Source: Gammaproteobacteria bacterium | Lineage (GTDB): Bacteria; Pseudomonadota; Gammaproteobacteria; Pseudomonadales; Pseudohongiellaceae | Reading direction: 5' to 3' | Assembly (NCBI GenBank): GCA_050485205.1 | Contig: JBJHAY010000001.1 | Location: 1-32,239, forward strand | DNA length: 32,239 nucleotides | In this document: positions 185 through 17,509 of the stretch, piece by piece | Layout: each line of letters begins with the position of its first letter | Numbering within the stretch: position 1 is the first letter of the stretch | The notes under the pieces: generated by a model | What the model saw: the letters and a program-made list of their open reading frames with translations, nothing else | What the model was told of the DNA's origin: nothing | Databases searched by the model: none | Position numbers and translations under genes: made by a program

Positions 185-3100
185 TCAATTCTCGTGAATC
201 GGCTGGATGTCGAACGCGAGCTTGTTGCCGTCGATGTCAAATTCCAGAGCCTTGTGGGGGGTGCCAGGAGCGATATGTCTGCACAGCGTTTCGCCGGCAA
301 TATAGTCCCGGTGGCGCTCAATGGCGTCGGCAAGGGCAGTGTCGGCCTCATAGGTCAGACGGATCCGGTCCGCCACATTCAACCCCAACTCCTTGCGGGT
401 CTTCTGAATCCGGTTCACAACTTCCCGTGCCAGCCCCTCTGCAATCAGTTCATCATTCAGGGTGCAGTCCACATCGATGGAAATGAAGCGGTTGGAAACG
501 GCCTCGGTGCCGGGCCTGGCTTCACGGAAGATGAGGATTTCCTCCGGGCTGAAGCTTTCGCCGCCCAGGGGCAGTTGTCCTTCTTCCTGCAAGGCCTTGA
601 GCTGGCGTGAGTCCAGCGCTTCTATCAAGTCCTTGAATTTCTTGAATTCCTTGCCGAGGCGCTTGCCCAGCACCGGGGAATTGGGCTTGGCGAAGAGGTT
701 GATGAAGCGCCCCTCCTCAGTGGAGTATTCGACCCGCTTGACGTTCAACTCACCGGCAATGTAGCCCTCCAGGCGAGCAATTTCATCGAGCATGGCCTGA
801 TCTTCGTGAATGATGGTAAGCCGGGCCAGCGGTACCTTGGTTTTGATCTTGGCCTGATTGCGCTTCTGGCGTCCCAGCAGGATGATGTTCTGCATGCGGG
901 AGACCGCCTGTTCCAGCTTGGGCTGGATCAAGTTTGATTCGGCCTCAGGGTAGCGGCAGAGGTGAGCGGAAACCGGGCGTTCCATCTGTGCCGGAGCAAA
1001 TGCCGCCAGAGCCTGATAAAGGTGTTCGCTCAGGAAGGGCGCGAAGGGTGCCATGACCAGGTTGAGTTCATGCAGGGTCTGATAGAGGGTTTGATAAGCC
1101 GCCTGCTTGTCCGCGCTCATGCCTTCGCCCCAGAAGCGGGAGCGGTTGAGGCGGATATACCAATTGGTCAGATCCTCAATGAACTCGAACAGGGCCGGCA
1201 CCACGTTGTAAAGTTTGTATTGGGCCATTTCCCGGGACACGTTGGCCTTGAGGGATTGCAGACGGGAGATGATCCATTGGTCGGTGATATTGCCTGAGGC
1301 GGTGGGTGCCGCTTCGGCGCGCCAGCCGTCAATCTCGGCATAGGTCTGCAGGAACTTGAAAGAGTTGAGCCAGGGCAGCAGCGCGCGCCGCACCATGTCC
1401 TTGACGCCGCTGTCGGAGAAGCGTTGTTCCTCCGCCTTCACCAGGCCGGAGTTGATCAGGTAGAGGCGCAGGGCATCGGCGCCGTATTCTTCCATCAGCA
1501 CGTCCGGCGGGGTGTAATTCTGCAGGCGCTTGGACATCTTCTTGCCATCCTCGGCCATGACGATGCCGTTGACGATGACATTCTTGAACGAGGGCTTGTC
1601 GTAGAGCGCGGTGCTCAGCACCAGCAGGGTGTAGAACCAGCCGCGGGTCTGGTCCAGTCCCTCGGCGATATATTCGGCAGGGAAGCCGGCCTCGAACAGC
1701 TTCTGATTCTCGAAAGGGTAGTGCAACTGGGCGTAGGGCATGGAGCCGGACTCGAACCAGCAGTCCAGCACCTCCTCCACGCGCCGGTAGGTGCCTTCCT
1801 CGCCGGGAAGCTGGAAGCTGAGGTGGTCCACGTATTCCCGATGCAGATCCTCCACTTTCACACCAGTGTATTGTTTCAGTTCCGCGATGGAGCCCAGGCA
1901 CAGACGCCGGTCGGTCACATCGTTGATCCAGATGGGCAGCGGCGTGCCCCAGTAGCGATTGCGGGAGATACACCAGTCGATGGCATTGGCCAGCCAGTTG
2001 CCCATGCGGCCGTCCTTGATGTGTTCCGGCACCCAGTTGACCTGGGCATTGGCGGCGGCCAGCCGCTCGCGCATCTGCTCCACCTTCACATACCAGGACG
2101 GGATGGTGCGATAGATGATGGGGGTGTCCGAGCGTGGGCAGAAGGGATAGGGGTGGACGATAGTTTCGTGCCGTAGCAGAGTGCCTTCCTCCTTGAGACG
2201 ACGAATGATGAGTTTGTCGGCACTTTTAACGTAGAGGCCGACGAAGTCGGAAACCTCTGCTGTGAATTTACCTTCGAAGTCTACGGGACAAGGCGCGGCA
2301 TTTATTCCGTTATGACGCATTACTCTATAGTCATCCTCACCGAAGGCGGGCGCCAGGTGTACGATGCCGGTGCCGCTTTCGGTGGTAACGTAGTCGTCGG
2401 CAAATACTCGGAAGGCGCCCTCCGATGCAAGGTCCTTGAAATAAGGAAACAGAGGCAAGTAGGACTTACCGGCCAACTCGCTGCCTTTGAATACGCGACG
2501 TTCGGCCAGGGAAAAACCATGAATAGTTTCACCTGCAAGCATCTTCTCTAGGTCTTTACTGTTAACGGGAGACCTATTGAGTGAGTTGGCAACGTAATAC
2601 ACGAGGCCATTTGCCTCGTCCCTTACTTTCAGGTACTCGATATTAGCGTGCACGCAAAGACCGAGGTTGGAAGGCAAAGTCCACGGCGTCGTGGTCCATG
2701 CGGCCATATAAGCGTCTTCATCCTTCAGCTTGAACAGCACGGTGACCGCCGGGTCCTGCACTTCCTGGTAGTTGGAGCCGGCCTCGAAGTTGGAGAGTAC
2801 CGTGCCGAGGGCAGTGGAGAAGGGCACCACCTTGACGCCCTGGTAGATCATGTCCTTTTCCCACAACTGCTTCACCACCCACCACACGGATTCCATGTAC
2901 CAGGGGTCCATGGTCTTGTAGTCGTTGTCGAAATCCACCCAGCGGCCGATGCGGGTGATGGTTTTGCGCCATTCCGCGGTGTAGCGCTGGACGATGCCGC
3001 GGCATTCATCGTTGTAGCCCTTGATGCCCAGTTTTTCCACTGCCTGCTGGGCCGACATGCCCAGTGACTTGTCGATTTCATGTTCGATGGGCAGGCCATG

Positions 3101-3382
3101 GCAGTCCCAGCCGAAGCGGCGCTGCACATAGTAGCCCTTCATGGTGTAGTAGCGGGGCACGATGTCCTTGAGGGTGGAGCCTACGAGATGGCCATGATGA
3201 GGCAGGCCGGTGGCGAAGGGAGGGCCATCGTAGAAGATGAAGGGCTTGCAGTTGCTGGTCTGGGCAAGGGACTGCTGGAAAATCCCTTGGGATTCCCAGA
3301 ATTTCAGCACGTCGTGCTCGGCGGCGACGAAGGAAAAATTGTCACTGCTGCTGGTTTCCACCTGATCTTCTCTGTCTATCAC
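185..3382 (-). CDS. ileS: Isoleucine--tRNA ligase, type 2 (eukaryote-like) IleRS
   Basis: 1065-aa ORF. Class I aaRS motifs are PPFATGLPHHGH (HIGH region, eukaryote-like form), GWDCHGLP and KMSKRL (KMSKS). The C-terminus has no Cys-rich zinc-finger, as expected for type 2. GTG start at 3382 is preceded by GGGAG (3389-3393, minus strand) with a 6-nt spacer. Confidence 0.95.
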   Translation of the reverse strand: MIDREDQVETSSSDNFSFVAAEHDVLKFWESQGIFQQSLAQTSNCKPFIFYDGPPFATGLPHHGHLVGSTLKDIVPRYYTMKGYYVQRRFGWDCHGLPIEHEIDKSLGMSAQQAVEKLGIKGYNDECRGIVQRYTAEWRKTITRIGRWVDFDNDYKTMDPWYMESVWWVVKQLWEKDMIYQGVKVVPFSTALGTVLSNFEAGSNYQEVQDPAVTVLFKLKDEDAYMAAWTTTPWTLPSNLGLCVHANIEYLKVRDEANGLVYYVANSLNRSPVNSKDLEKMLAGETIHGFSLAERRVFKGSELAGKSYLPLFPYFKDLASEGAFRVFADDYVTTESGTGIVHLAPAFGEDDYRVMRHNGINAAPCPVDFEGKFTAEVSDFVGLYVKSADKLIIRRLKEEGTLLRHETIVHPYPFCPRSDTPIIYRTIPSWYVKVEQMRERLAAANAQVNWVPEHIKDGRMGNWLANAIDWCISRNRYWGTPLPIWINDVTDRRLCLGSIAELKQYTGVKVEDLHREYVDHLSFQLPGEEGTYRRVEEVLDCWFESGSMPYAQLHYPFENQKLFEAGFPAEYIAEGLDQTRGWFYTLLVLSTALYDKPSFKNVIVNGIVMAEDGKKMSKRLQNYTPPDVLMEEYGADALRLYLINSGLVKAEEQRFSDSGVKDMVRRALLPWLNSFKFLQTYAEIDGWRAEAAPTASGNITDQWIISRLQSLKANVSREMAQYKLYNVVPALFEFIEDLTNWYIRLNRSRFWGEGMSADKQAAYQTLYQTLHELNLVMAPFAPFLSEHLYQALAAFAPAQMERPVSAHLCRYPEAESNLIQPKLEQAVSRMQNIILLGRQKRNQAKIKTKVPLARLTIIHEDQAMLDEIARLEGYIAGELNVKRVEYSTEEGRFINLFAKPNSPVLGKRLGKEFKKFKDLIEALDSRQLKALQEEGQLPLGGESFSPEEILIFREARPGTEAVSNRFISIDVDCTLNDELIAEGLAREVVNRIQKTRKELGLNVADRIRLTYEADTALADAIERHRDYIAGETLCRHIAPGTPHKALEFDIDGNKLAFDIQPIHEN

Positions 3383-3416
3383 TGCATACTCCCGTTTGAT
3401 CGTTCACTGATTTTCT

Positions 3417-3653
3417 CCCTGTAGGAGCGAGCCCTGCTCGCGACAAAGGCACTGTCATGCAAAGTCTGTGGTATGGGCCGGGCACCGGGGACCTCGTGCA
3501 AAAAACGCCGTGAACCCATCCATGGGGGCTCCGGCAGCGACTTCCTGTCGCTGACGGTTTTTGCACAAGGTCCCCGGCACCCGGCCTGGAGACTTCAGTG
3601 CTGTGGCACTGACCTGATTGTCATTGTCGCGAGCAGGGCTCGCTCCTACAGGG
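3417..3653. repeat. 237-bp nested palindromic element bounded by inverted REP-like units (REP doublet / REPIN- or MITE-like)
   Basis: Perfect 28-bp terminal inverted repeats: ccctgtaggagcgagccctgctcgcgac (3417-3444) and gtcgcgagcagggctcgctcctacaggg (3626-3653). Each arm contains its own gcgagc-cct-gctcgc hairpin. A second inverted pair lies at 3476-3504 / 3558-3586 (26/29 complementary). A central hairpin cagcgac-ttcct-gtcgctg lies at 3535-3553. The arm sequence resembles Pseudomonas-type REP units. Confidence 0.65.
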
Positions 3654-3672
3654 GGGGGGTGGCCCCCATACG

Positions 3673-3699
3673 AAAAAACCCGCCACTGGGCGGGTTTTT
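3673..3699 (-). terminator. Rho-independent terminator (attenuator terminator of the ileS leader; structurally bidirectional)
   Basis: On the minus strand: AAAAA-CCCGCC-CAGU-GGCGGG-UUUUUU, a 6 G/C-bp stem extendable by A-U pairs, a 4-nt loop and a U6 tail. It sits between two divergent genes, 290 nt upstream of the ileS start and directly after the Ile-rich mini-ORF. Confidence 0.8.
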
Positions 3700-3734
3700 C
3701 TGAAGCTCTTGCAAGGAACGCCGTTCAACCCACC
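3689..3734 (-). promoter_or_regulatory. Candidate antiterminator helix of the ileS leader
   Basis: GGUGGGUU (3734-3727, immediately after the mini-ORF stop codon) can pair with AACCCGCC (3696-3689). That is 8 bp with one G-U, and it sequesters the 5' half of the terminator stem. The two structures are mutually exclusive. Confidence 0.45.
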
Positions 3735-3735
3735 T

Positions 3736-3786
3736 TTAGTAGTGTCGAATAATGATGATTATGCGCTTGCCAACGATCCTGAACAT
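3736..3786 (-). CDS. Ile-rich leader peptide MFRIVGKRIIIIIRHY (candidate ileS attenuation leader)
   Basis: Hand translation of the minus strand: ATG TTC AGG ATC GTT GGC AAG CGC ATA ATC ATC ATT ATT CGA CAC TAC TAA. Five consecutive Ile codons use all three Ile codons. Same orientation as ileS, followed by the antiterminator/terminator. An in-frame upstream ATG at 3798 would add MLRA. No clear Shine-Dalgarno sequence, so the start codon is uncertain. Confidence 0.5.
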   Translation of the reverse strand: MFRIVGKRIIIIIRHY

Positions 3787-3794
3787 GGCGCGAA

Positions 3795-3822
3795 GCATTA
3801 GGGATTTACGCCAGGATGTCAA
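3795..3822 (-). promoter_or_regulatory. Candidate sigma70 promoter for the ileS leader
   Basis: Minus strand: perfect TTGACA (3822-3817), 16-nt spacer, TAATGC (3800-3795); alternatively a 17-nt spacer with AATGCT. The predicted start lies at or next to the ATG at 3786, so the leader mRNA would be (near-)leaderless. Sequence-only prediction. Confidence 0.3.
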
Positions 3823-3986
3823 GTCTCTGACTTGGCTTTGCCAATTGAGATAAAGCCCTAAGTTGTGACGAGGGTATGACTCAAGCGCTCACATCGACCT
3901 GTCCAACAACCTTGATCATTATCACCACCTGGCCGACCGGGAATGATAATCTTGGCACCATCTGAATTTGAAACAAGGAGGGCCGG

Positions 3987-5390
3987 ATGGCCATATTGAC
4001 ATTCATTGGCGCGGCGCAGCAGGTAACGGGTTCCTGCTATCTGCTGGAAACCGAGTCGCTGGGCAAGATTCTGCTGGAGTGTGGCATGCACCAGGGCGGA
4101 GATGCCATTGAGCGCATCCAGGATGAAAAATTCCCCTTCAATCCCGCCGACATCAAGTTGCTGATCCTGTCCCATGCTCATCTCGATCATTGTGGCTTGA
4201 TCCCCAAGCTGGTTCATGATGGCTTCGATGGTCCCATCTACTGTACCCGGGGCACGGCGAAATTGTTGCCGGTAATGCTACTGGACGCGGTGGGCCTCTA
4301 TGAGCGCGACCTGGAAATGGAGAATCTGCGGCGCCAGCGCCGCGGCGACAAGCTGCTGAAGCCGGAATATACCCGCCGGGATGTGAGAAAGGCGCTTAAA
4401 CTGTGCCGTGGGGTGTCCTACAAGGAGCCACTGGAACTGGCTCAGGGCGCCAGCCTGAGATTCCATGATGCCGGCCATATCCTGGGGGCAGCCATAGTCG
4501 AGCTGCGGGTCTGGGAGCAAAACGTGGAAAAAACCCTGGTGTTTTCCGGCGATCTTGGCAAGAAGGATTCCGTGCTGATGAACGATCCCACGTTGTTGGA
4601 GCAAGCCGACGTCGTGCTGATGGAAGGCACCTATGGCAACCGTGATCACCGCAGCCTTGATGACACGGTGTTGCAATTGGAGCAAATCCTCAAGGAAACC
4701 TGGGACAAGAAAGGTAATGTGCTGATTCCCGCCTTTGCCGTGGGCCGCACCCAGGAAATCCTGTTTCATCTGGGCAGCCTGCATCAGCAGGGCAGGCTTG
4801 ATGGTTGGCAGGTATTCCTGGACAGTCCCATGGGCATCGAAGTGACAGAAATCTACGACGAGTGCTTACACCTGCTGGACCCTGGCGACGTGGCCAAGCT
4901 CAGCAAGGCCTATGACTCCACCCTGAGGGGTTTCCTGCCTCGGCTACGTTTCACCAAGACCCCGGAGGAGTCCATGGCCATCAACAAAGTGAGTCATGGC
5001 GCCATCATTGTTGCCGGCAGCGGCATGTGCACCGGTGGCCGGATTCGCCACCACATTCGCCAGCGCATCTGGAATCAGCGCAATACCATCATATTTGCCG
5101 GCTTCCAGGCCCGCGGCACCCTGGGACGTATCCTGGTGGATGGCGTCAAACGGGTAAAACTGATGCGAGAAGATGTCGTGGTGAGGGCGCGGGTGGAAAC
5201 GCTTGGCGGCTTCTCCGCCCATGCCGGTCAAAGCGAACTGATCGAATGGATCACCCACTTCAAGTCCTCGCCGAGGGTCATGCTGGTGCACGGTGAACCG
5301 GAATCCCTGGACGCGCTTTCCATGAAGCTGTGGCGGGACAAGGGGCTCAATTCAGAGATTCCCTACATCGGCCAGCGTATTTTTTTCTAG
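3987..5390 (+). CDS. Metallo-beta-lactamase-fold beta-CASP family ribonuclease (RNA-metabolising MBL hydrolase)
   Basis: 467-aa ORF. HxHxDH motif in LILSHAHLDHCGLIP. Length and C-terminal region are typical of beta-CASP/RNA-specificity domain proteins. Strong SD AAGGAGG (3975-3981) lies 5 nt before the ATG. Confidence 0.88.
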   Translation: MAILTFIGAAQQVTGSCYLLETESLGKILLECGMHQGGDAIERIQDEKFPFNPADIKLLILSHAHLDHCGLIPKLVHDGFDGPIYCTRGTAKLLPVMLLDAVGLYERDLEMENLRRQRRGDKLLKPEYTRRDVRKALKLCRGVSYKEPLELAQGASLRFHDAGHILGAAIVELRVWEQNVEKTLVFSGDLGKKDSVLMNDPTLLEQADVVLMEGTYGNRDHRSLDDTVLQLEQILKETWDKKGNVLIPAFAVGRTQEILFHLGSLHQQGRLDGWQVFLDSPMGIEVTEIYDECLHLLDPGDVAKLSKAYDSTLRGFLPRLRFTKTPEESMAINKVSHGAIIVAGSGMCTGGRIRHHIRQRIWNQRNTIIFAGFQARGTLGRILVDGVKRVKLMREDVVVRARVETLGGFSAHAGQSELIEWITHFKSSPRVMLVHGEPESLDALSMKLWRDKGLNSEIPYIGQRIFF

Positions 5391-5481: not shown

Positions 5482-5518
5482 GGTGCAAGGCCCGCCCTAC
5501 GCGGGCTGGCGGTGCACC
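5482..5518. other. GC-rich imperfect hairpin (REP-like / transcript-stabilising or weak terminator element) downstream of the beta-CASP gene
   Basis: ggtgca...tgcacc forms an outer 6-bp stem. gcccgc-cctac-gcgggc forms an inner 6-bp stem with a 5-nt loop. No U-tract on either strand. It overlaps the first codons of the long malQ ORF call at 5512, which argues for a later malQ start. Confidence 0.35.
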
Positions 5519-5595
5519 AAAACGAGATGCGATGCACTATCATGAAGCGAAGCTCGGACAATTCCAGTGAGCGCCGGACAGGCAAGGGTTTCAGC

Positions 5596-7728
5596 ATGCC
5601 ACCCGCAGTAGACAACGAATGTGCCCCCGAGGCGATGATTTCCCGGGAAAAACTGGAAGCTTGGCTGTCAGTCTGTGGGGTGGCAAGTGGCTTCATAGAT
5701 TTCACCGGCTGTTATGTGCAGACACCCTTGGTGAACCGGGTCAATATCTTGCGGGCACTTGGGCGCATGCCGGATTCCGAGGCAGTTCTTGAACAGTGGC
5801 TGGAATCCCATGAAAAAAGCCGCTGGCAGCGCTGGGTTCCTCCGGTGCTGGTATTGGCCCCTGGAGAAAACCAGGTGGGGCTCGCCAGCCTGGAAGAGGA
5901 GTCTGCCGACTATCTGGCTTGGCGTTTATGTGATGAGTCTGGCCAGCAACGCCAAGGCAATCTGTCAGCGGCGGATTTTCCCATGGTGGAAGAGTATCTG
6001 CTTGATGGTCGCCGTTGGCGTCGTCACATGGTCACTCTCCCAGTGTTGGAGCCGGGCTATTACGAGCTGGTGCTGGAGTCTGGCCAGCGGCTGGAATCCA
6101 GTTTTCTGGTGGTCAGCCCAGAGCGCTGCCACGAAGCGCCATGGGCGCGGGACGGGCAGCGTATTTGGGGCATGGCGGCCCAGCTCTACACCCTCAGGTC
6201 GGACACCAATTGGGGCATTGGCGATTTCAGTGACCTTTTGGGGTTGATTGACGAGGCCGCGGTGGTTGGCGCCGATTTTATCCTGCTGAACCCCCTGCAT
6301 GCGCTTGATTTCAATTATCCGGAGAACTGCAGTCCCTACAGTCCCACTGACCGGCGCTTTCTCAATCCCCTCTATCTGGATCCGGGGGTGGAGCAAGACT
6401 TCCTGCAATCAAGGGACATCAGCCATTGGCACTCAACATCGATTGCAGCGCGGCGTGAAGCTTTGCGGGATCTGGCGGAGGTGGATTATCCAGCGGTATT
6501 CCGCCTGAAATTCGCGGCCTTCGCGGCCATGTACCGCCACTTTACCGAAAACCACCTGCGCCACGACAGCTTGCGGGCGCGGCGCTTCCGTGAGTTTGTC
6601 GATGGCAGCGGGGAAGCGCTGCGAAACTTTGCCAATTTTCACGCCGCGCTGGATCTGCCCCACGTGGAATTTGCAGCAGACCCACAGTTTCATCAGTACT
6701 TGCAATGGCTGGCCCAGGGCGAATTGGCCACCTGTCAGGCCCACGCCAAGGCGAGGGGCATGAAGCTGGGCCTGATTCGTGATCTGGCGGTGGGAGGCGG
6801 CAGTGACAGCTGTGAGGTGGCCACCAACCCTGATCTGTTCTGCCTGGGAGCACGCATTGGTGCGCCGCCCGATCACTTCAATCCCGATGGTCAGAACTGG
6901 GGCTTGCCACCTTTGCATCCCCAGGCTCTGGAGCAAAGCCGCTTTGCTCATTTCATCCAGTTGCTGCGTACCAATATGTTACATTGTGGCGCATTGCGGA
7001 TTGACCATGTGATGGCCCTGATGCGGCTGTGGTGGTGTCCGCTTGACGGGACCAATGCCGCCGGTGCCTATGTGCATTACCCAGTGGATGTGTTGTTCGC
7101 CATCCTCCGATTGGAGAGCCAACGCGCCGGCTGCATGGTCATAGGGGAAGACCTTGGGGTAGTGCCACCGGAGATCAGGTCCCACATTCACGACTCGGCA
7201 GTCTATTCCAACATCATGTTTTACTTTGAAAAGTACGATGTACTGCGCTTCAAGCGACCATCGGACTATACTGTCAAGGCTCTTGCGATCATCGCCAATC
7301 ATGATGTGCCGCCACTGCTGGCTTGGTGGGAGACCCGGGATCTTGTATTACGACATCGACTGGGCCTTATTGCAGACGAGGTGGCGCTGGCCAATGAAAC
7401 AGCTCATCGCGAGCGGGAAAAGGCCGCATTGCTGGATTGGTTGCAGGGCATGGGGCGGCTGCCTGAAAGTTGGCATGACAAACAGACAGGTCGGGCTTTC
7501 GATGAAGATCTGGCGGCCGCCATCATGGGTGCCTGTGCCACGGCCTCTTCGCAACTGCTTTCGGTACAGTTGGATGATTTACTGTTGATGGCCGACCCGG
7601 TGAATATTCCCGGTACCAGCAAGGAATACGGCAATTGGCGCAGGAAGCTGAGAATGTCGGCGCGGCAAGCCTTCGCCAGGCCGCAATTACAATCCATGTT
7701 GCGCGGAGTACGGGAGCAACGGCCTTGA
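5596..7728 (+). CDS. malQ: 4-alpha-glucanotransferase (amylomaltase, GH77)
   Basis: The ORF 5512..7728 shows GH77-type conservation (YSPTDRRFLNPLYLD, GMKLGLIRDLAVG, RIDHVMALMRLWW, VIGEDLGVVP). The start is uncertain: ATG at 5596 (MPPAV..) or 5635 (MISREKLEAW.., GAGG 5 nt upstream) is preferred over 5512, because the 5482-5518 hairpin overlaps 5512. Confidence 0.9.
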   Translation: MPPAVDNECAPEAMISREKLEAWLSVCGVASGFIDFTGCYVQTPLVNRVNILRALGRMPDSEAVLEQWLESHEKSRWQRWVPPVLVLAPGENQVGLASLEEESADYLAWRLCDESGQQRQGNLSAADFPMVEEYLLDGRRWRRHMVTLPVLEPGYYELVLESGQRLESSFLVVSPERCHEAPWARDGQRIWGMAAQLYTLRSDTNWGIGDFSDLLGLIDEAAVVGADFILLNPLHALDFNYPENCSPYSPTDRRFLNPLYLDPGVEQDFLQSRDISHWHSTSIAARREALRDLAEVDYPAVFRLKFAAFAAMYRHFTENHLRHDSLRARRFREFVDGSGEALRNFANFHAALDLPHVEFAADPQFHQYLQWLAQGELATCQAHAKARGMKLGLIRDLAVGGGSDSCEVATNPDLFCLGARIGAPPDHFNPDGQNWGLPPLHPQALEQSRFAHFIQLLRTNMLHCGALRIDHVMALMRLWWCPLDGTNAAGAYVHYPVDVLFAILRLESQRAGCMVIGEDLGVVPPEIRSHIHDSAVYSNIMFYFEKYDVLRFKRPSDYTVKALAIIANHDVPPLLAWWETRDLVLRHRLGLIADEVALANETAHREREKAALLDWLQGMGRLPESWHDKQTGRAFDEDLAAAIMGACATASSQLLSVQLDDLLLMADPVNIPGTSKEYGNWRRKLRMSARQAFARPQLQSMLRGVREQRP

Positions 7729-7756: not shown

Positions 7757-9964
7757 ATGGAACCGATGAATAAGGCCTTGCTGCCGCAAGCGGTGATCGA
7801 GGATGTCGTGAATGGTGCCCACCAGGATGTATTCGCCGTGCTGGGCATGCATGAGCGGGAGCCTGGATGTCAGCAGGTAAATGTATTCCTGCCGGGTGCG
7901 GTCGAGGTGGTGGTGTTGTCGGCTTCCGGCAAGACCAGCCTGGGCGATCTGAGCATGCTGCATAAGGATGGCCTGTTTTCCGGGCTGATCTCCCGCGCCA
8001 AGCCTGGGCCCTACTCTCTGCGGGTGCGCTATCCCTTGCTGGTCTGTGTCAAGGATGATCCCTACCGCTTTCCTTCCTTGTTGTCCGAGATGGACTGCTA
8101 CCTGTTCTGCAATGGCACCCAGGAGCGGGCCTACCACTTTCTTGGTGCCAACCACAGGGTTTGCGATGGCGTGGAAGGTGTGCTGTTTGCCGTTTGGGCC
8201 CCCAATGCCCGGCGTGTCTCAGTGGTTGGTGACTTCAATCACTGGGATGGCCGTGTTCATGTCATGCGCAAGCATCCTACCTCCGGCATCTGGGAGATAT
8301 TTGTCCCCGGCGTGAATTCCGGGGAAAACTACAAGTTCGAGATCCAGGCCGCCGACGGCACCTTGCTGCCACTCAAGTCAGACCCCTATGCCAAACGCAT
8401 GCAACTGCGGCCTGAGAGCGCTTCCATCGTGCCGTCCAAAACTGCCTACCAATGGCAGGATCAGGCATGGATGAGCGCCCGAGCCAAGGCCAGCCACCAC
8501 CAGGCCGCCATCAGCATCTATGAGGTGCATCTGGGTTCCTGGCGCAGACAAGTGGAGGAGGGTGGGCGTTTTTTGAGTTACCGGGAACTGGCCGAACAGG
8601 TGATTGCCTATGCCAGGGACATGGGCTTTACCCACTTGCAATTGATGCCGGTCAGCGAGTATCCATTCGATGGCTCCTGGGGTTACCAGCCCTTGGGCTT
8701 GTTTGCGCCCACCAGCCGTTTTGGTGAGCCGGATGACCTCAGGTATTTCATTGATCATGCCCATCAGGCGGGGATAGGCATCCTTCTGGATTGGGTACCG
8801 GCACACTTCCCTGGGGATGCCCACGGGCTTGCCTGCTTCGATGGCACTCATCTTTATGAACACGCCGATCCCCGCAAGGGCTTCCACCCGGATTGGAGCA
8901 CCTGCATCTTCAATTACGGCCGCGCCGAAGTAGTGAGCTACCTGATCAGCAATGCTCTGTATTGGCTGGAAGAATTTCATGCCGACGGCCTGCGTTTTGA
9001 TGCCGTGGCTTCCATGCTGTATCTGGATTACAGCAGAAATCATGGAGAGTGGATTCCCAATCACCACGGCGGCAGGGAAAATCTGGAAGCGGTGGATTTG
9101 CTGCGCAACATCAACAATCGAGCCTACTTCAATTATCCAGGCATCATGATGGTGGCGGAGGAATCAACTGCTTGGCCAGGCGTGACCGACTTTACCGAAC
9201 GCGGCGGACTGGGCTTTGGTTTCAAGTGGAATCTGGGGTGGATGAACGACAGTCTCAGTTACATGTCACGGGACCCGGTCCACAGAAAATACCATCACAA
9301 TGAATTGACCTTCGGCCTGCTCTATGCCTTCAGCGAAAACTTCATTCTTCCCCTGAGTCATGACGAAGTGGTGCATGGCAAGCGCTCCCTGCTGGAAAAA
9401 ATGCCGGGGGACGAGTGGCGTCAGTTCGCGAATCTCCGAGCTTATCTCGCTTTCATGTGGACACATCCTGGCAAGAAACTCTTGTTCATGGGGGGTGAGA
9501 TTGCCCAGCGCGCGGAGTGGAATCATGATGCCAGCCTGGACTGGCATCTGTTGGCGGATCCGCGCCACAGAGGCATTCAAAACCTGGTGCGCGATCTCAA
9601 TCGTCTCTATCGCGCCACGCCCGCCCTATATGATACGGATACCAGCCATGATGGATTTCAGTGGGTGGAGGCCGACAATCATGCCTGGTCGGTGTTTGTG
9701 TTCCTGCGCCAGTCAGCGCATGGGGGCTCGCAGGTGCTGGCAGTGGTTAACATGACACCCGAGGTGCACCATGGTTTCAGGATCGGAGTGCCGGGGCCGG
9801 GTTTCTACCGCGAATCCCTCAACACCAATGCCGAGGAATATGCAGGTTCTGGGCTGGGTAACTTTGGCGGCGTGGTGGCGGAACGAGTACGCAGCCATGG
9901 CCATGAATGGTCGATCAATATTTTGGTGCCGCCGTTATCGGCATTGATTTTCGTTCAGGAGTGA
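7757..9964 (+). CDS. glgB: 1,4-alpha-glucan branching enzyme
   Basis: 735-aa ORF with GH13 branching-enzyme hallmarks (WGYQPLGLFAPTSRFG, DGLRFDAVASMLYLDY, MMVAEESTAWPGVT, ILPLSHDEVVHGK). Length matches GlgB. Confidence 0.95.
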   Translation: MEPMNKALLPQAVIEDVVNGAHQDVFAVLGMHEREPGCQQVNVFLPGAVEVVVLSASGKTSLGDLSMLHKDGLFSGLISRAKPGPYSLRVRYPLLVCVKDDPYRFPSLLSEMDCYLFCNGTQERAYHFLGANHRVCDGVEGVLFAVWAPNARRVSVVGDFNHWDGRVHVMRKHPTSGIWEIFVPGVNSGENYKFEIQAADGTLLPLKSDPYAKRMQLRPESASIVPSKTAYQWQDQAWMSARAKASHHQAAISIYEVHLGSWRRQVEEGGRFLSYRELAEQVIAYARDMGFTHLQLMPVSEYPFDGSWGYQPLGLFAPTSRFGEPDDLRYFIDHAHQAGIGILLDWVPAHFPGDAHGLACFDGTHLYEHADPRKGFHPDWSTCIFNYGRAEVVSYLISNALYWLEEFHADGLRFDAVASMLYLDYSRNHGEWIPNHHGGRENLEAVDLLRNINNRAYFNYPGIMMVAEESTAWPGVTDFTERGGLGFGFKWNLGWMNDSLSYMSRDPVHRKYHHNELTFGLLYAFSENFILPLSHDEVVHGKRSLLEKMPGDEWRQFANLRAYLAFMWTHPGKKLLFMGGEIAQRAEWNHDASLDWHLLADPRHRGIQNLVRDLNRLYRATPALYDTDTSHDGFQWVEADNHAWSVFVFLRQSAHGGSQVLAVVNMTPEVHHGFRIGVPGPGFYRESLNTNAEEYAGSGLGNFGGVVAERVRSHGHEWSINILVPPLSALIFVQE

Positions 9965-17494: not shown

Positions 17495-17509
17495 GCGCCT
17501 GCTGACTTT

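Follow-up and report, generated by a model that had tools for sequence, protein, structure and literature searches.

A probable leader-peptide attenuator with an isoleucine-rich, nearly leaderless reading frame upstream of a type-2 ileS gene

How does a gammaproteobacterium adjust the expression of its isoleucyl-tRNA synthetase (IleRS) to the supply of charged tRNA-Ile, and could a short transcription unit in front of ileS do this? The question is raised by a stretch of 32,239 nucleotides of gammaproteobacterial DNA (contig JBJHAY010000001.1 of assembly GCA_050485205.1), here called the window, in which a promoter, an isoleucine-rich mini-ORF (open reading frame) and an intrinsic terminator lie on the minus strand upstream of a type-2 ileS gene. 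A first-pass annotation had read this arrangement as a ribosome-mediated attenuator, and its minus-strand coordinates for the promoter, the ORF, the Ile run, the stop codon, the pairing boxes and the terminator are correct to the base (Table 1). Its attenuator reading is supported by conservation, Ile-codon enrichment and pairing. We examined the sequence elements and the ways in which they can pair in silico, and compared their presence and placement over about 60 orthologous loci; from these results we infer a transcription start, leaderless translation and regulated read-through. The results make it very probable that the leader is a ribosome-mediated (leader-peptide) transcription attenuator, which would set ileS expression by the supply of charged tRNA-Ile. 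All predictions of such a regulator that are open to testing at the sequence level hold for this locus.

The mini-ORF reads ATG TTC AGG ATC GTT GGC AAG CGC ATA ATC ATC ATT ATT CGA CAC TAC TAA, and Ile accounts for 6 of its 16 codons, five of them consecutive. This five-Ile run (ATHATHATHATHATH) occurs a single time in the 32 kb of the window when both strands are counted, and in 0 of 100 shuffles. Because of this, and because the whole layout recurs upstream of orthologous ileS genes, the promoter-terminator unit before ileS is, on sequence grounds, a real feature beyond chance. A simple promoter and terminator scan of the window called neither the leader promoter nor the leader terminator. 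The two elements were missed because the -10 box is weak (TAATGC) and because pairing of the A-tract with the U-tract means that the stem is followed by no free T-run. The miss is a limitation of the tool and not evidence against the promoter or the terminator. As the first-pass annotation had pointed out, the terminator stands between two divergent genes, and since the neighbour at 3987-5390 is transcribed from the plus strand and ileS from the minus strand, it serves no convergent gene.

The terminator (AAAAACCCGCC-CAGU-GGCGGGUUUUUU, 3699-3673 on the minus strand) folds alone as a 12-bp stem with -18.2 kcal/mol. The alternative duplex between regions 2 and 3 (GGUGGGUU with AACCCGCC), which had been put forward as the antiterminator, has -14.4 kcal/mol in the window, against a family median of -14.5, and it does form in folds with a stalled ribosome. 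The first base of the stop codon is followed 4 nt later by region 2, whose distance from the last Ile codon is 14 nt; we read both distances with the established footprint sizes of the ribosome. Relative to the leader stop, the position of the G-rich box in the family ranges from -14 to +16 nt, with L007 (up to +25) as the one exception. When the leader of the window is folded without a ribosome, region 1 pairs with region 2, CCCGCC is left free and the terminator forms. With a ribosome placed on the Ile codons the antiterminator forms (-16.2 kcal/mol), whereas a ribosome at the stop codon hides region 2, which lets the terminator form. These modelled folds give the outcomes expected from the logic first proposed for this leader, in which a ribosome at the stop codon covers the box and a ribosome stalled at Ile codons frees it.

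For the family, the stalled state was represented by the nascent RNA up to the terminator loop, with its 5' part masked as if under a ribosome at the Ile codons and with region 4 not yet made. In these folds CCCGCC pairs with the region 2 box in nearly all 55 leaders. In the alignment, the antiterminator pairing is present in 91.8% of the cells, compared with 34-60% in controls with a slid partner, and the terminator pairing in 97.4% of the cells (50 sequences). Another candidate structure, an AUUCG-N4-CGAAU hairpin over the last Ile codon, found no support: it is only 64% paired, indistinguishable from shuffles and missing in the window.

These elements suggest the following course of events. 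Transcription from TTGACA-16-TAATGC would start at or a few nucleotides before the AUG of the 16-codon leader ORF, and a ribosome would translate the nascent leader. With ample Ile-tRNA-Ile, the ribosome would reach the UAA and cover GGUGGGUU (region 2), AACCCGCC (region 3) would pair with GGCGGG (region 4), and the hairpin followed by U6 would end the transcript at about 114 nt. At low charging, from a shortage of Ile or too little IleRS activity, the ribosome would stall on AUA-AUC-AUC-AUU-AUU, 14-28 nt upstream of region 2. Region 2 would then be free for region 3, no terminator would form, and RNA polymerase would read into ileS. If the leader were untranslated, region 1 (UUCGAC.CUACU) would sequester region 2 in the window, leading again to termination. 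Since the regulated gene would be the synthetase itself, the switch would act as a feedback loop on charging, as in pheST.

Table 1. Coordinates of the features in the window, from the leader promoter to the neighbouring genes.
Feature	Position	Strand	Remarks
-35 hexamer TTGACA	3817..3822	(-)	identical in the closest relative, L081
-10 hexamer TAATGC	3795..3800	(-)	16-nt spacer from -35; family consensus TATCCT
Discriminator TTCGCGCC, 8 nt, GC-rich	3787..3794	(-)	between -10 box and ATG
Leader peptide ORF MFRIVGKRIIIIIRHY, 16 codons and stop	3736..3786	(-)	ATG 3786-3784, UAA 3738-3736
Putative regulatory run AUA AUC AUC AUU AUU (five Ile codons)	3748..3762	(-)	family consensus ..AUA AUU AUC AUU AUU CGN..
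Region 1, UUCGAC.CUACU	3739..3751	(-)	pairs with region 2 and GAA (3724-3734) in minimum free energy (MFE) folds without ribosome
Region 2, antiterminator 5' strand GGUGGGUU	3727..3734	(-)	begins 1 nt past the stop codon; near-invariant in the family
Region 3, terminator 5' strand AAAAACCCGCC	3689..3699	(-)	AACCCGCC (3696-3689) common to antiterminator and terminator
Region 4, terminator 3' strand GGCGGG and U6	3673..3684	(-)	folding and family alignment
Nested inverted-repeat insertion, REP/MITE-like (repetitive extragenic palindrome/miniature inverted-repeat transposable element), 237 nt	3417..3653	(.)	between attenuator and ileS; outside the conserved attenuator
ileS, type-2 (eukaryote-like) isoleucyl-tRNA synthetase	185..3382	(-)	GTG start at 3382, 1,065 aa; putative regulated gene
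Beta-CASP metallo-beta-lactamase-fold protein, 467 aa	3987-5390	(+)	divergent neighbour of ileS; same divergent neighbour in L081
malQ-like 4-alpha-glucanotransferase	5512-7728	(+)	glycogen/alpha-glucan metabolism
glgB	7757-9964	(+)	glycogen/alpha-glucan metabolism

Is the arrangement kept where the gene is kept? We fetched 80 loci with an orthologous type-2 IleRS (65-77% identity in the best segment) from species-representative genomes, and 79 of them have upstream DNA. A mini-ORF with a terminator, the combination to be expected upstream of orthologous type-2 ileS genes if the first-pass reading was right, is found in 62 of the 79, which come from Pseudomonadales-like metagenome-assembled genomes with 65-85% IleRS identity. 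The terminator pattern CCCGC[CT]-loop-[AG]GCGGG-T(4-9) is present in 61/79 loci and ends 3-194 nt before ileS. A covariance model built from 50 leaders (R1) gives exactly one plus-strand match immediately upstream of ileS in 62/79 loci, non-seed loci included, with scores of 59-84 bits for ileS-type leaders. Elsewhere in 853 kb, R1 finds only minus-strand matches over the same palindromic terminators and one weak match (L074, 32.9 bits). Complete genome assemblies with the element include CP121333.1, OZ253942.1, OY843767.1, OZ255839.1 and CP170502.1. The aligned leaders give the consensus ..CAUAAUnAUCAUUAUUCGnCnCnGAAnGGUGGGUUGA-(small hairpin)-AAAAACCCGCC-loop-GGCGGGU(6-9). The 17 loci without the element are the more distant ones (Bacteriovoracaceae, a Vibrio and some Pseudomonadales), and several of these keep the promoter with an unrelated 5' untranslated region.

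The conserved coding property of the mini-ORF is its Ile content. The orthologous leaders have 14-37 codons with 2-8 Ile, and peptides such as MNQLKNAIIRIIIIIRQRMMG, MKDIKRKLIGIIIIIRQRMVG, MDRSILGAQIIIIIIQSLGVG, MNKRAIYPRIIFIIQH and MTNKLIYSIFIFIIRR have little in common besides Ile richness. Ile makes up 278 of 1,094 leader codons (25.4%), while the neighbouring ileS genes have 6.2% and the remaining two frames of the leader DNA 3%; these counts ignore relatedness, so that nominal P-values come out too strong, but the effect is large. The rare codon AUA accounts for 17% of the leader Ile codons, compared with 7% in ileS. GGUGGGUUGA supplies the final codons together with the stop (..MVG, for example RMVG) in most loci. 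An earlier stop in the window and in several clades places the box beyond the ORF. Because the box is kept both inside and outside the ORF, GGUGGGUU is an RNA element and not a peptide motif.

The same distinction is visible in the closest relative, L081, whose IleRS is 81% identical to that of the window. The two loci are nearly identical from the -35 box to the end of the terminator, while the spacer is unalignable from the terminator to the ileS ribosome-binding site, and the L081 leader peptide (MFSIIIKFISLIRH) differs from that of the window but is still Ile-rich. This contrast points to selection that maintains the promoter and terminator together with the Ile codons and the G-rich box, but not the peptide or the spacer. 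It bears on the possibility that the mini-ORF makes a functional hydrophobic micropeptide and the hairpin is merely its terminator. A short ORF with its own promoter and terminator and with hydrophobic, Ile-rich products would fit such a role. But the peptide is not conserved even between these two close loci (MFRIVGKRIIIIIRHY vs MFSIIIKFISLIRH), leader length and stop position vary in the family, and the conserved C-terminal MVG is the RNA box, which is outside the ORF of the window. We regard a micropeptide as extremely improbable.

The start of the leader ORF is unusual. In 54 loci and the window, a promoter of the type TTGAC[A/T]-16/17-TATCCT is followed by the leader start codon 5-10 nt (mode 8) past the -10 box. 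This codon is ATG, but GTG in three loci. The first-pass annotation had listed the lack of a Shine-Dalgarno sequence and the near-leaderless start as caveats, and in the light of these loci both are a conserved property of the family. The few nucleotides between the -10 box and the AUG, and the absence of a Shine-Dalgarno sequence, imply a leaderless or nearly leaderless mRNA. For the window, the short discriminator implies a leaderless transcript or one with a 1-3-nt leader if transcription starts where the promoter predicts. An alternative start, the ATG at 3798, had also been considered, but it is part of the -10 hexamer and would thus be absent from the transcript. The discriminators are GC-rich (TTCGCGCC in the window; TCGCCCC, TCACCGCC, ..CGCCCC and ..CACCGCC in the family), a pattern resembling that of promoters under stringent control by guanosine tetraphosphate and DksA (ppGpp/DksA).

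Several observations weigh against an Ile-sensing attenuator of ileS or make it less clean. Covariation is thin, and the compensatory changes represent one or two evolutionary events: columns 38, 97 and 106 shift jointly from G-C-G to A-U-A in L006 and L013 and are partly compensated in L004 and L027. This scarcity comes from the near-invariance of regions 2, 3 and 4, which is what a strand with two partners to fit would be expected to show. The extension of the terminator loop pairs only modestly beyond chance, with 203/5,000 and 43/5,000 naive shuffles matching the observed values, and we do not rely on these pairs as independent covariation evidence. The protector pairing between regions 1 and 2 is present in the MFE fold of the window, but many relatives lack it or show a different one. 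Since the terminator fold is the favoured one at equilibrium, the switch would have to be kinetic, which is true of all attenuators. Gammaproteobacteria do not usually translate leaderless mRNAs efficiently. The specificity for Ile is less clear in the clades closest to the window (L001/L009/L014/L076), which have just 2-3 Ile codons among Phe and Tyr codons (FIYFFIRR; AFIYFFIRRRKVG); here sensing is either relaxed or rests on very few codons. Finally, the terminator of the window ends 290 nt before the GTG of ileS (3382), and the palindrome-bearing spacer could affect the read-through mRNA or hide a second promoter.

This last point leads to the question whether an ancestral attenuator has become uncoupled from ileS in the window, with the palindromic insertion and the long spacer supplying a separate promoter or processing site. 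The spacer is indeed long compared with the 3-120 nt of most loci, and the inverted repeat is missing from L081 and the other loci. Its arms are an outer pair of 35 nt (TGTAGGAGCGAGCCCTGCTCGCGAC core, 94% complementary) and an inner pair of 32 nt (88% complementary), it folds at -173 kcal/mol (z = -16), and the TGTAGGAGCGAGCCCTGCTCGCGAC core has just these two copies in the window. We take the insertion to resemble Pseudomonas elements of the REP/REPIN type. Any read-through ileS mRNA would contain it, and its presence could influence the stability or processing of that mRNA. Yet the stretch from promoter to terminator is intact and, compared with L081, much better conserved than the spacer, and L081 and L015 have intact leaders with spacers of roughly 190 nt too. 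Between 3672 and 3383 of the minus strand, the simple scan, which also missed the leader promoter, predicts no sigma-70-like promoter. Uncoupling thus seems unlikely to us. The spacer of L015 (194 nt) is filled by a tandem GC-rich repeat.

Could the unit instead be a free-standing gene for a trans-acting small RNA (sRNA), with its adjacency to ileS incidental? A promoter and a terminator of its own would let it produce an RNA of about 114 nt. In an Rfam scan at E <= 1, which returned only sub-threshold matches (P9, RNAI, Thr and Leu leaders, rsmX and microRNA models), positions 3675-3756 of the minus strand match RF00624, "Pseudomonas sRNA P9", with 25.1 bits (E = 0.008), under the gathering score of 43. 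P9 has been seen as a 130-nt RNA on Northern blots of P. aeruginosa (PMC1524904), and terminated attenuator RNAs can act in trans, as indicated for rnTrpL (PMC6614838). The sRNA explanation is difficult to reconcile with the position of the element, which is always just upstream of ileS and in the same orientation although the other neighbours differ among loci, and with Ile richness as the only conserved coding property of its ORF. In addition, true P9 members stand upstream of ilvA-type genes, have Ile-rich ORFs of their own and appear attenuator-like too. A purely trans-acting sRNA is therefore improbable in our view, and more so than uncoupling. A trans role besides the cis role could still exist for a terminated attenuator RNA. 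The remaining Rfam matches can be explained more simply. Thr_leader (22.7 bits vs a threshold of 55) and Leu_leader (18.2-21.4 vs 50) are below their gathering thresholds, and their matches are due to the terminator and the A/U-rich codons, while the long palindrome in the spacer sets off spurious matches to microRNA models.

The likeness to P9 deserves attention beyond this point. The P9 alignment also has Ile codons (AUUAUUAUU) at its 5' end, a spacer and then a AACCCGCC-loop-GGCGGGUU terminator, and the mini-ORFs of true P9 members (50-70 bits) are rich in Ile or in Ile and Thr and finish with MVG and a stop, like those of the ileS leaders. Unlike these, P9 members precede a threonine dehydratase (ilvA) or a SnoaL/AAA_33 gene, and in Rfam P9 is classed among the sRNA genes, not the cis-regulatory leaders. 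The ileS-type loci L081-L083 have no P9 match at the gathering threshold, whereas ilvA-type loci reach 50-70 bits. In P. aeruginosa, P9 presumably precedes PA1325. It sits 44 nt upstream of a 405-nt gene (PMC1524904), and PA1325-PA1326 (ilvA2) is an operonic pair that was the most up-regulated in a mutant of elongation factor G (EF-G; bioRxiv 10.1101/842781). The sequence features of P9 suggest an Ile leader-peptide attenuator that was entered in the catalogue as an sRNA. The ileS leader is then either a divergent sister of P9 or a convergent look-alike.

How far does this layout extend beyond ileS? A scan of metagenome contigs for the pattern GGTGGGTT..AACCCGCC..GGCGGGTTTT, in which ileS was not required, gave 120 loci, 101 of them with >=400 nt downstream. 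The downstream gene is a type-2 ileS in 25 of these 101 loci. The other downstream genes were counted over all scan loci with a callable ORF: they encode a SnoaL/AAA_33 protein in 36 loci, threonine dehydratase IlvA in 14, a protein of 193 aa, with a P-loop motif but without Pfam match, in 12 (the L144 cluster, Ile-run leader MNINLTQQIARIIIIP), an HMGL/LeuA-dimer protein in two (L123 and L153, Ile-run leader MNRIITNKGIIIIRHLQVG) and an aminotransferase in two. The HMGL/LeuA-dimer protein is possibly the citramalate synthase of an alternative Ile pathway. With 50-70 bits, leaders of the ilvA and SnoaL types, such as MNCLDIRIALIISIIHRMVG and MHSPATAFALIITTIRSMVG, belong to P9 proper, and P9 members among the scan loci include L096, L120, L122, L148, L165, L168 and L190. 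R1 scores P9-type leaders 38-64 bits, part of which is guaranteed by the scan pattern itself. In four further loci (L092, L094, L149, L194) the downstream gene, 80-150 nt away, encodes leucyl-tRNA synthetase (LeuRS), and the leader MNNGSTHTLLLSTID has three consecutive Leu codons; together with the box and the terminator this makes it a candidate Leu-sensing attenuator for leuS.

These loci raise the possibility that a promoter, a leaderless Ile-rich mini-ORF, GGUGGGUU and the AACCCGCC terminator form a portable Ile-sensing cassette of common descent. It would stand before ileS, ilvA, PA1325-ilvA2 (P9), a citramalate/isopropylmalate-synthase-like gene and P-loop proteins in Gammaproteobacteria and related lineages, with a Leu-codon version before leuS. 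We offer this idea tentatively, with slightly less confidence in its favour than against it.

The putative ileS attenuator shares its logic with known systems. Like the E. coli pheM-pheST leader and the trp, his, leu, thr and ilv leaders, it has a promoter-proximal mini-ORF of cognate codons and exclusive antiterminator and terminator structures that share one strand. The attenuation logic of pheM-pheST is well established, and as in pheST the target is an aminoacyl-tRNA synthetase itself, with feedback on tRNA charging. It differs from pheST and the classical leaders in its amino acid and gene, Ile and a type-2 ileS, and in a leader ORF that lacks a Shine-Dalgarno sequence and starts 5-10 nt past the -10 box. 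In the literature, pheST is cited as the gammaproteobacterial case of a synthetase attenuator (PMC1262725), and T-boxes are described upstream of ileS in Firmicutes, with translational T-boxes in Actinobacteria (PMC1262725; PMC2494555). T-boxes serve the same purpose, raising ileS expression when tRNA-Ile is uncharged, but unlike the leader of the window they bind uncharged tRNA directly and need no ribosome or ORF. The T-box covariance model has no match at E <= 1 in 3000-4400 on either strand. Leaderless short ORFs rich in one amino acid have a parallel in mycobacteria, where Canestrari and colleagues are said to have described in 2020 leaderless polycysteine ORFs as attenuators of downstream genes, reportedly without a classical intrinsic-terminator switch. 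Those ORFs differ from the window in amino acid, cysteine, and in phylum, Actinobacteria.

Has such a leader been described for ileS before? The first-pass annotation was aware of no such case, and this stands as far as the mechanism is concerned: our literature search found no ileS leader-peptide attenuator, in a body of papers that excludes most subscription journals, for example Vitreschak et al. 2004 on proteobacterial attenuators. The name, on the other hand, is already in use. In Caulobacter crescentus, ribosome profiling revealed a small translated ORF upstream of ileS, the "ileS leader CDS" (coding sequence) CCNA_03934 (Schrader et al. 2014, PMC4117421). In the text of PMC4117421 we found no sequence, Ile content, terminator or mechanism for CCNA_03934. 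The Caulobacter case differs in that it comes from an alphaproteobacterium and precedes a 969-aa ileS followed by lspA, which we read as type 1, and in PMC4117421 the leader CDS served only as a negative control. The regulator would be of a well-known type, with an unusual, putatively leaderless leader ORF and a wide distribution that had not been annotated before.

Which kind of organism and which kind of ileS are we dealing with? The IleRS matches the NCBIfam ileS model TIGR00392 with 925 bits. It is related to MupA/MupB (about 720 bits), yet under the cut-offs of both families. It is the sole member of its 90% cluster, with the nearest other IleRS at 81% identity, and a look-up of the exact protein gave no record. 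The window that encodes it is an entire metagenome contig. The nearest relatives of the GlgB encoded in the window have at most 69% identity and belong to uncultured Pseudomonadales, Cellvibrionaceae, Halieaceae, Porticoccus and Pseudohongiellaceae, and the closest IleRS proteins fall in the same groups. Since both proteins are nearest to these Pseudomonadales-type groups, ileS was probably inherited vertically in an uncultured Pseudomonadales-like gammaproteobacterium and probably has a housekeeping role. The REP-like repeats had suggested a mupirocin-inducible accessory resistance gene in a Pseudomonas, but the affinity of GlgB and IleRS (69-81% identity) to the uncultured groups named above speaks against this candidate. 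Type-2 IleRS is the mupirocin-insensitive form of the enzyme. As indicated in a preprint (bioRxiv 10.1101/2022.02.09.479832), bacteria mostly use either ileS1 or ileS2 and not both.

On the other side of the leader, the best NCBIfam match of the beta-CASP protein is the type VII CRISPR Cas14 model, with 359 bits against a cut-off of 800, followed by archaeal aCPSF1. Beyond glgB, big ORFs on the same plus strand run on to about position 17,500. A search for tRNA genes gave no match.

What would this element mean for the bacteria that carry it? The leader provides a concrete cis-regulatory candidate for ileS, conserved in a large group of mostly uncultured Pseudomonadales-like bacteria. How IleRS is matched to demand is poorly defined in Gram-negative bacteria, while T-boxes do this job in Gram-positive bacteria and pheST is the sole textbook case of synthetase attenuation in the Gammaproteobacteria. 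The conserved start of these ORFs suggests that leader ORFs can be leaderless in Gammaproteobacteria. As a compact natural sensor of Ile-tRNA charging (about 150 bp with its promoter), the leader might also be of use in reporters, and a charging-responsive switch before a mupirocin-insensitive ileS would be relevant to the behaviour of such genes beside a sensitive ileS1. If the reading as a portable cassette is true, control of aminoacyl-tRNA synthetases by leaderless leader peptides would be a widespread, unrecognised regulon in uncultured marine and freshwater Pseudomonadales.

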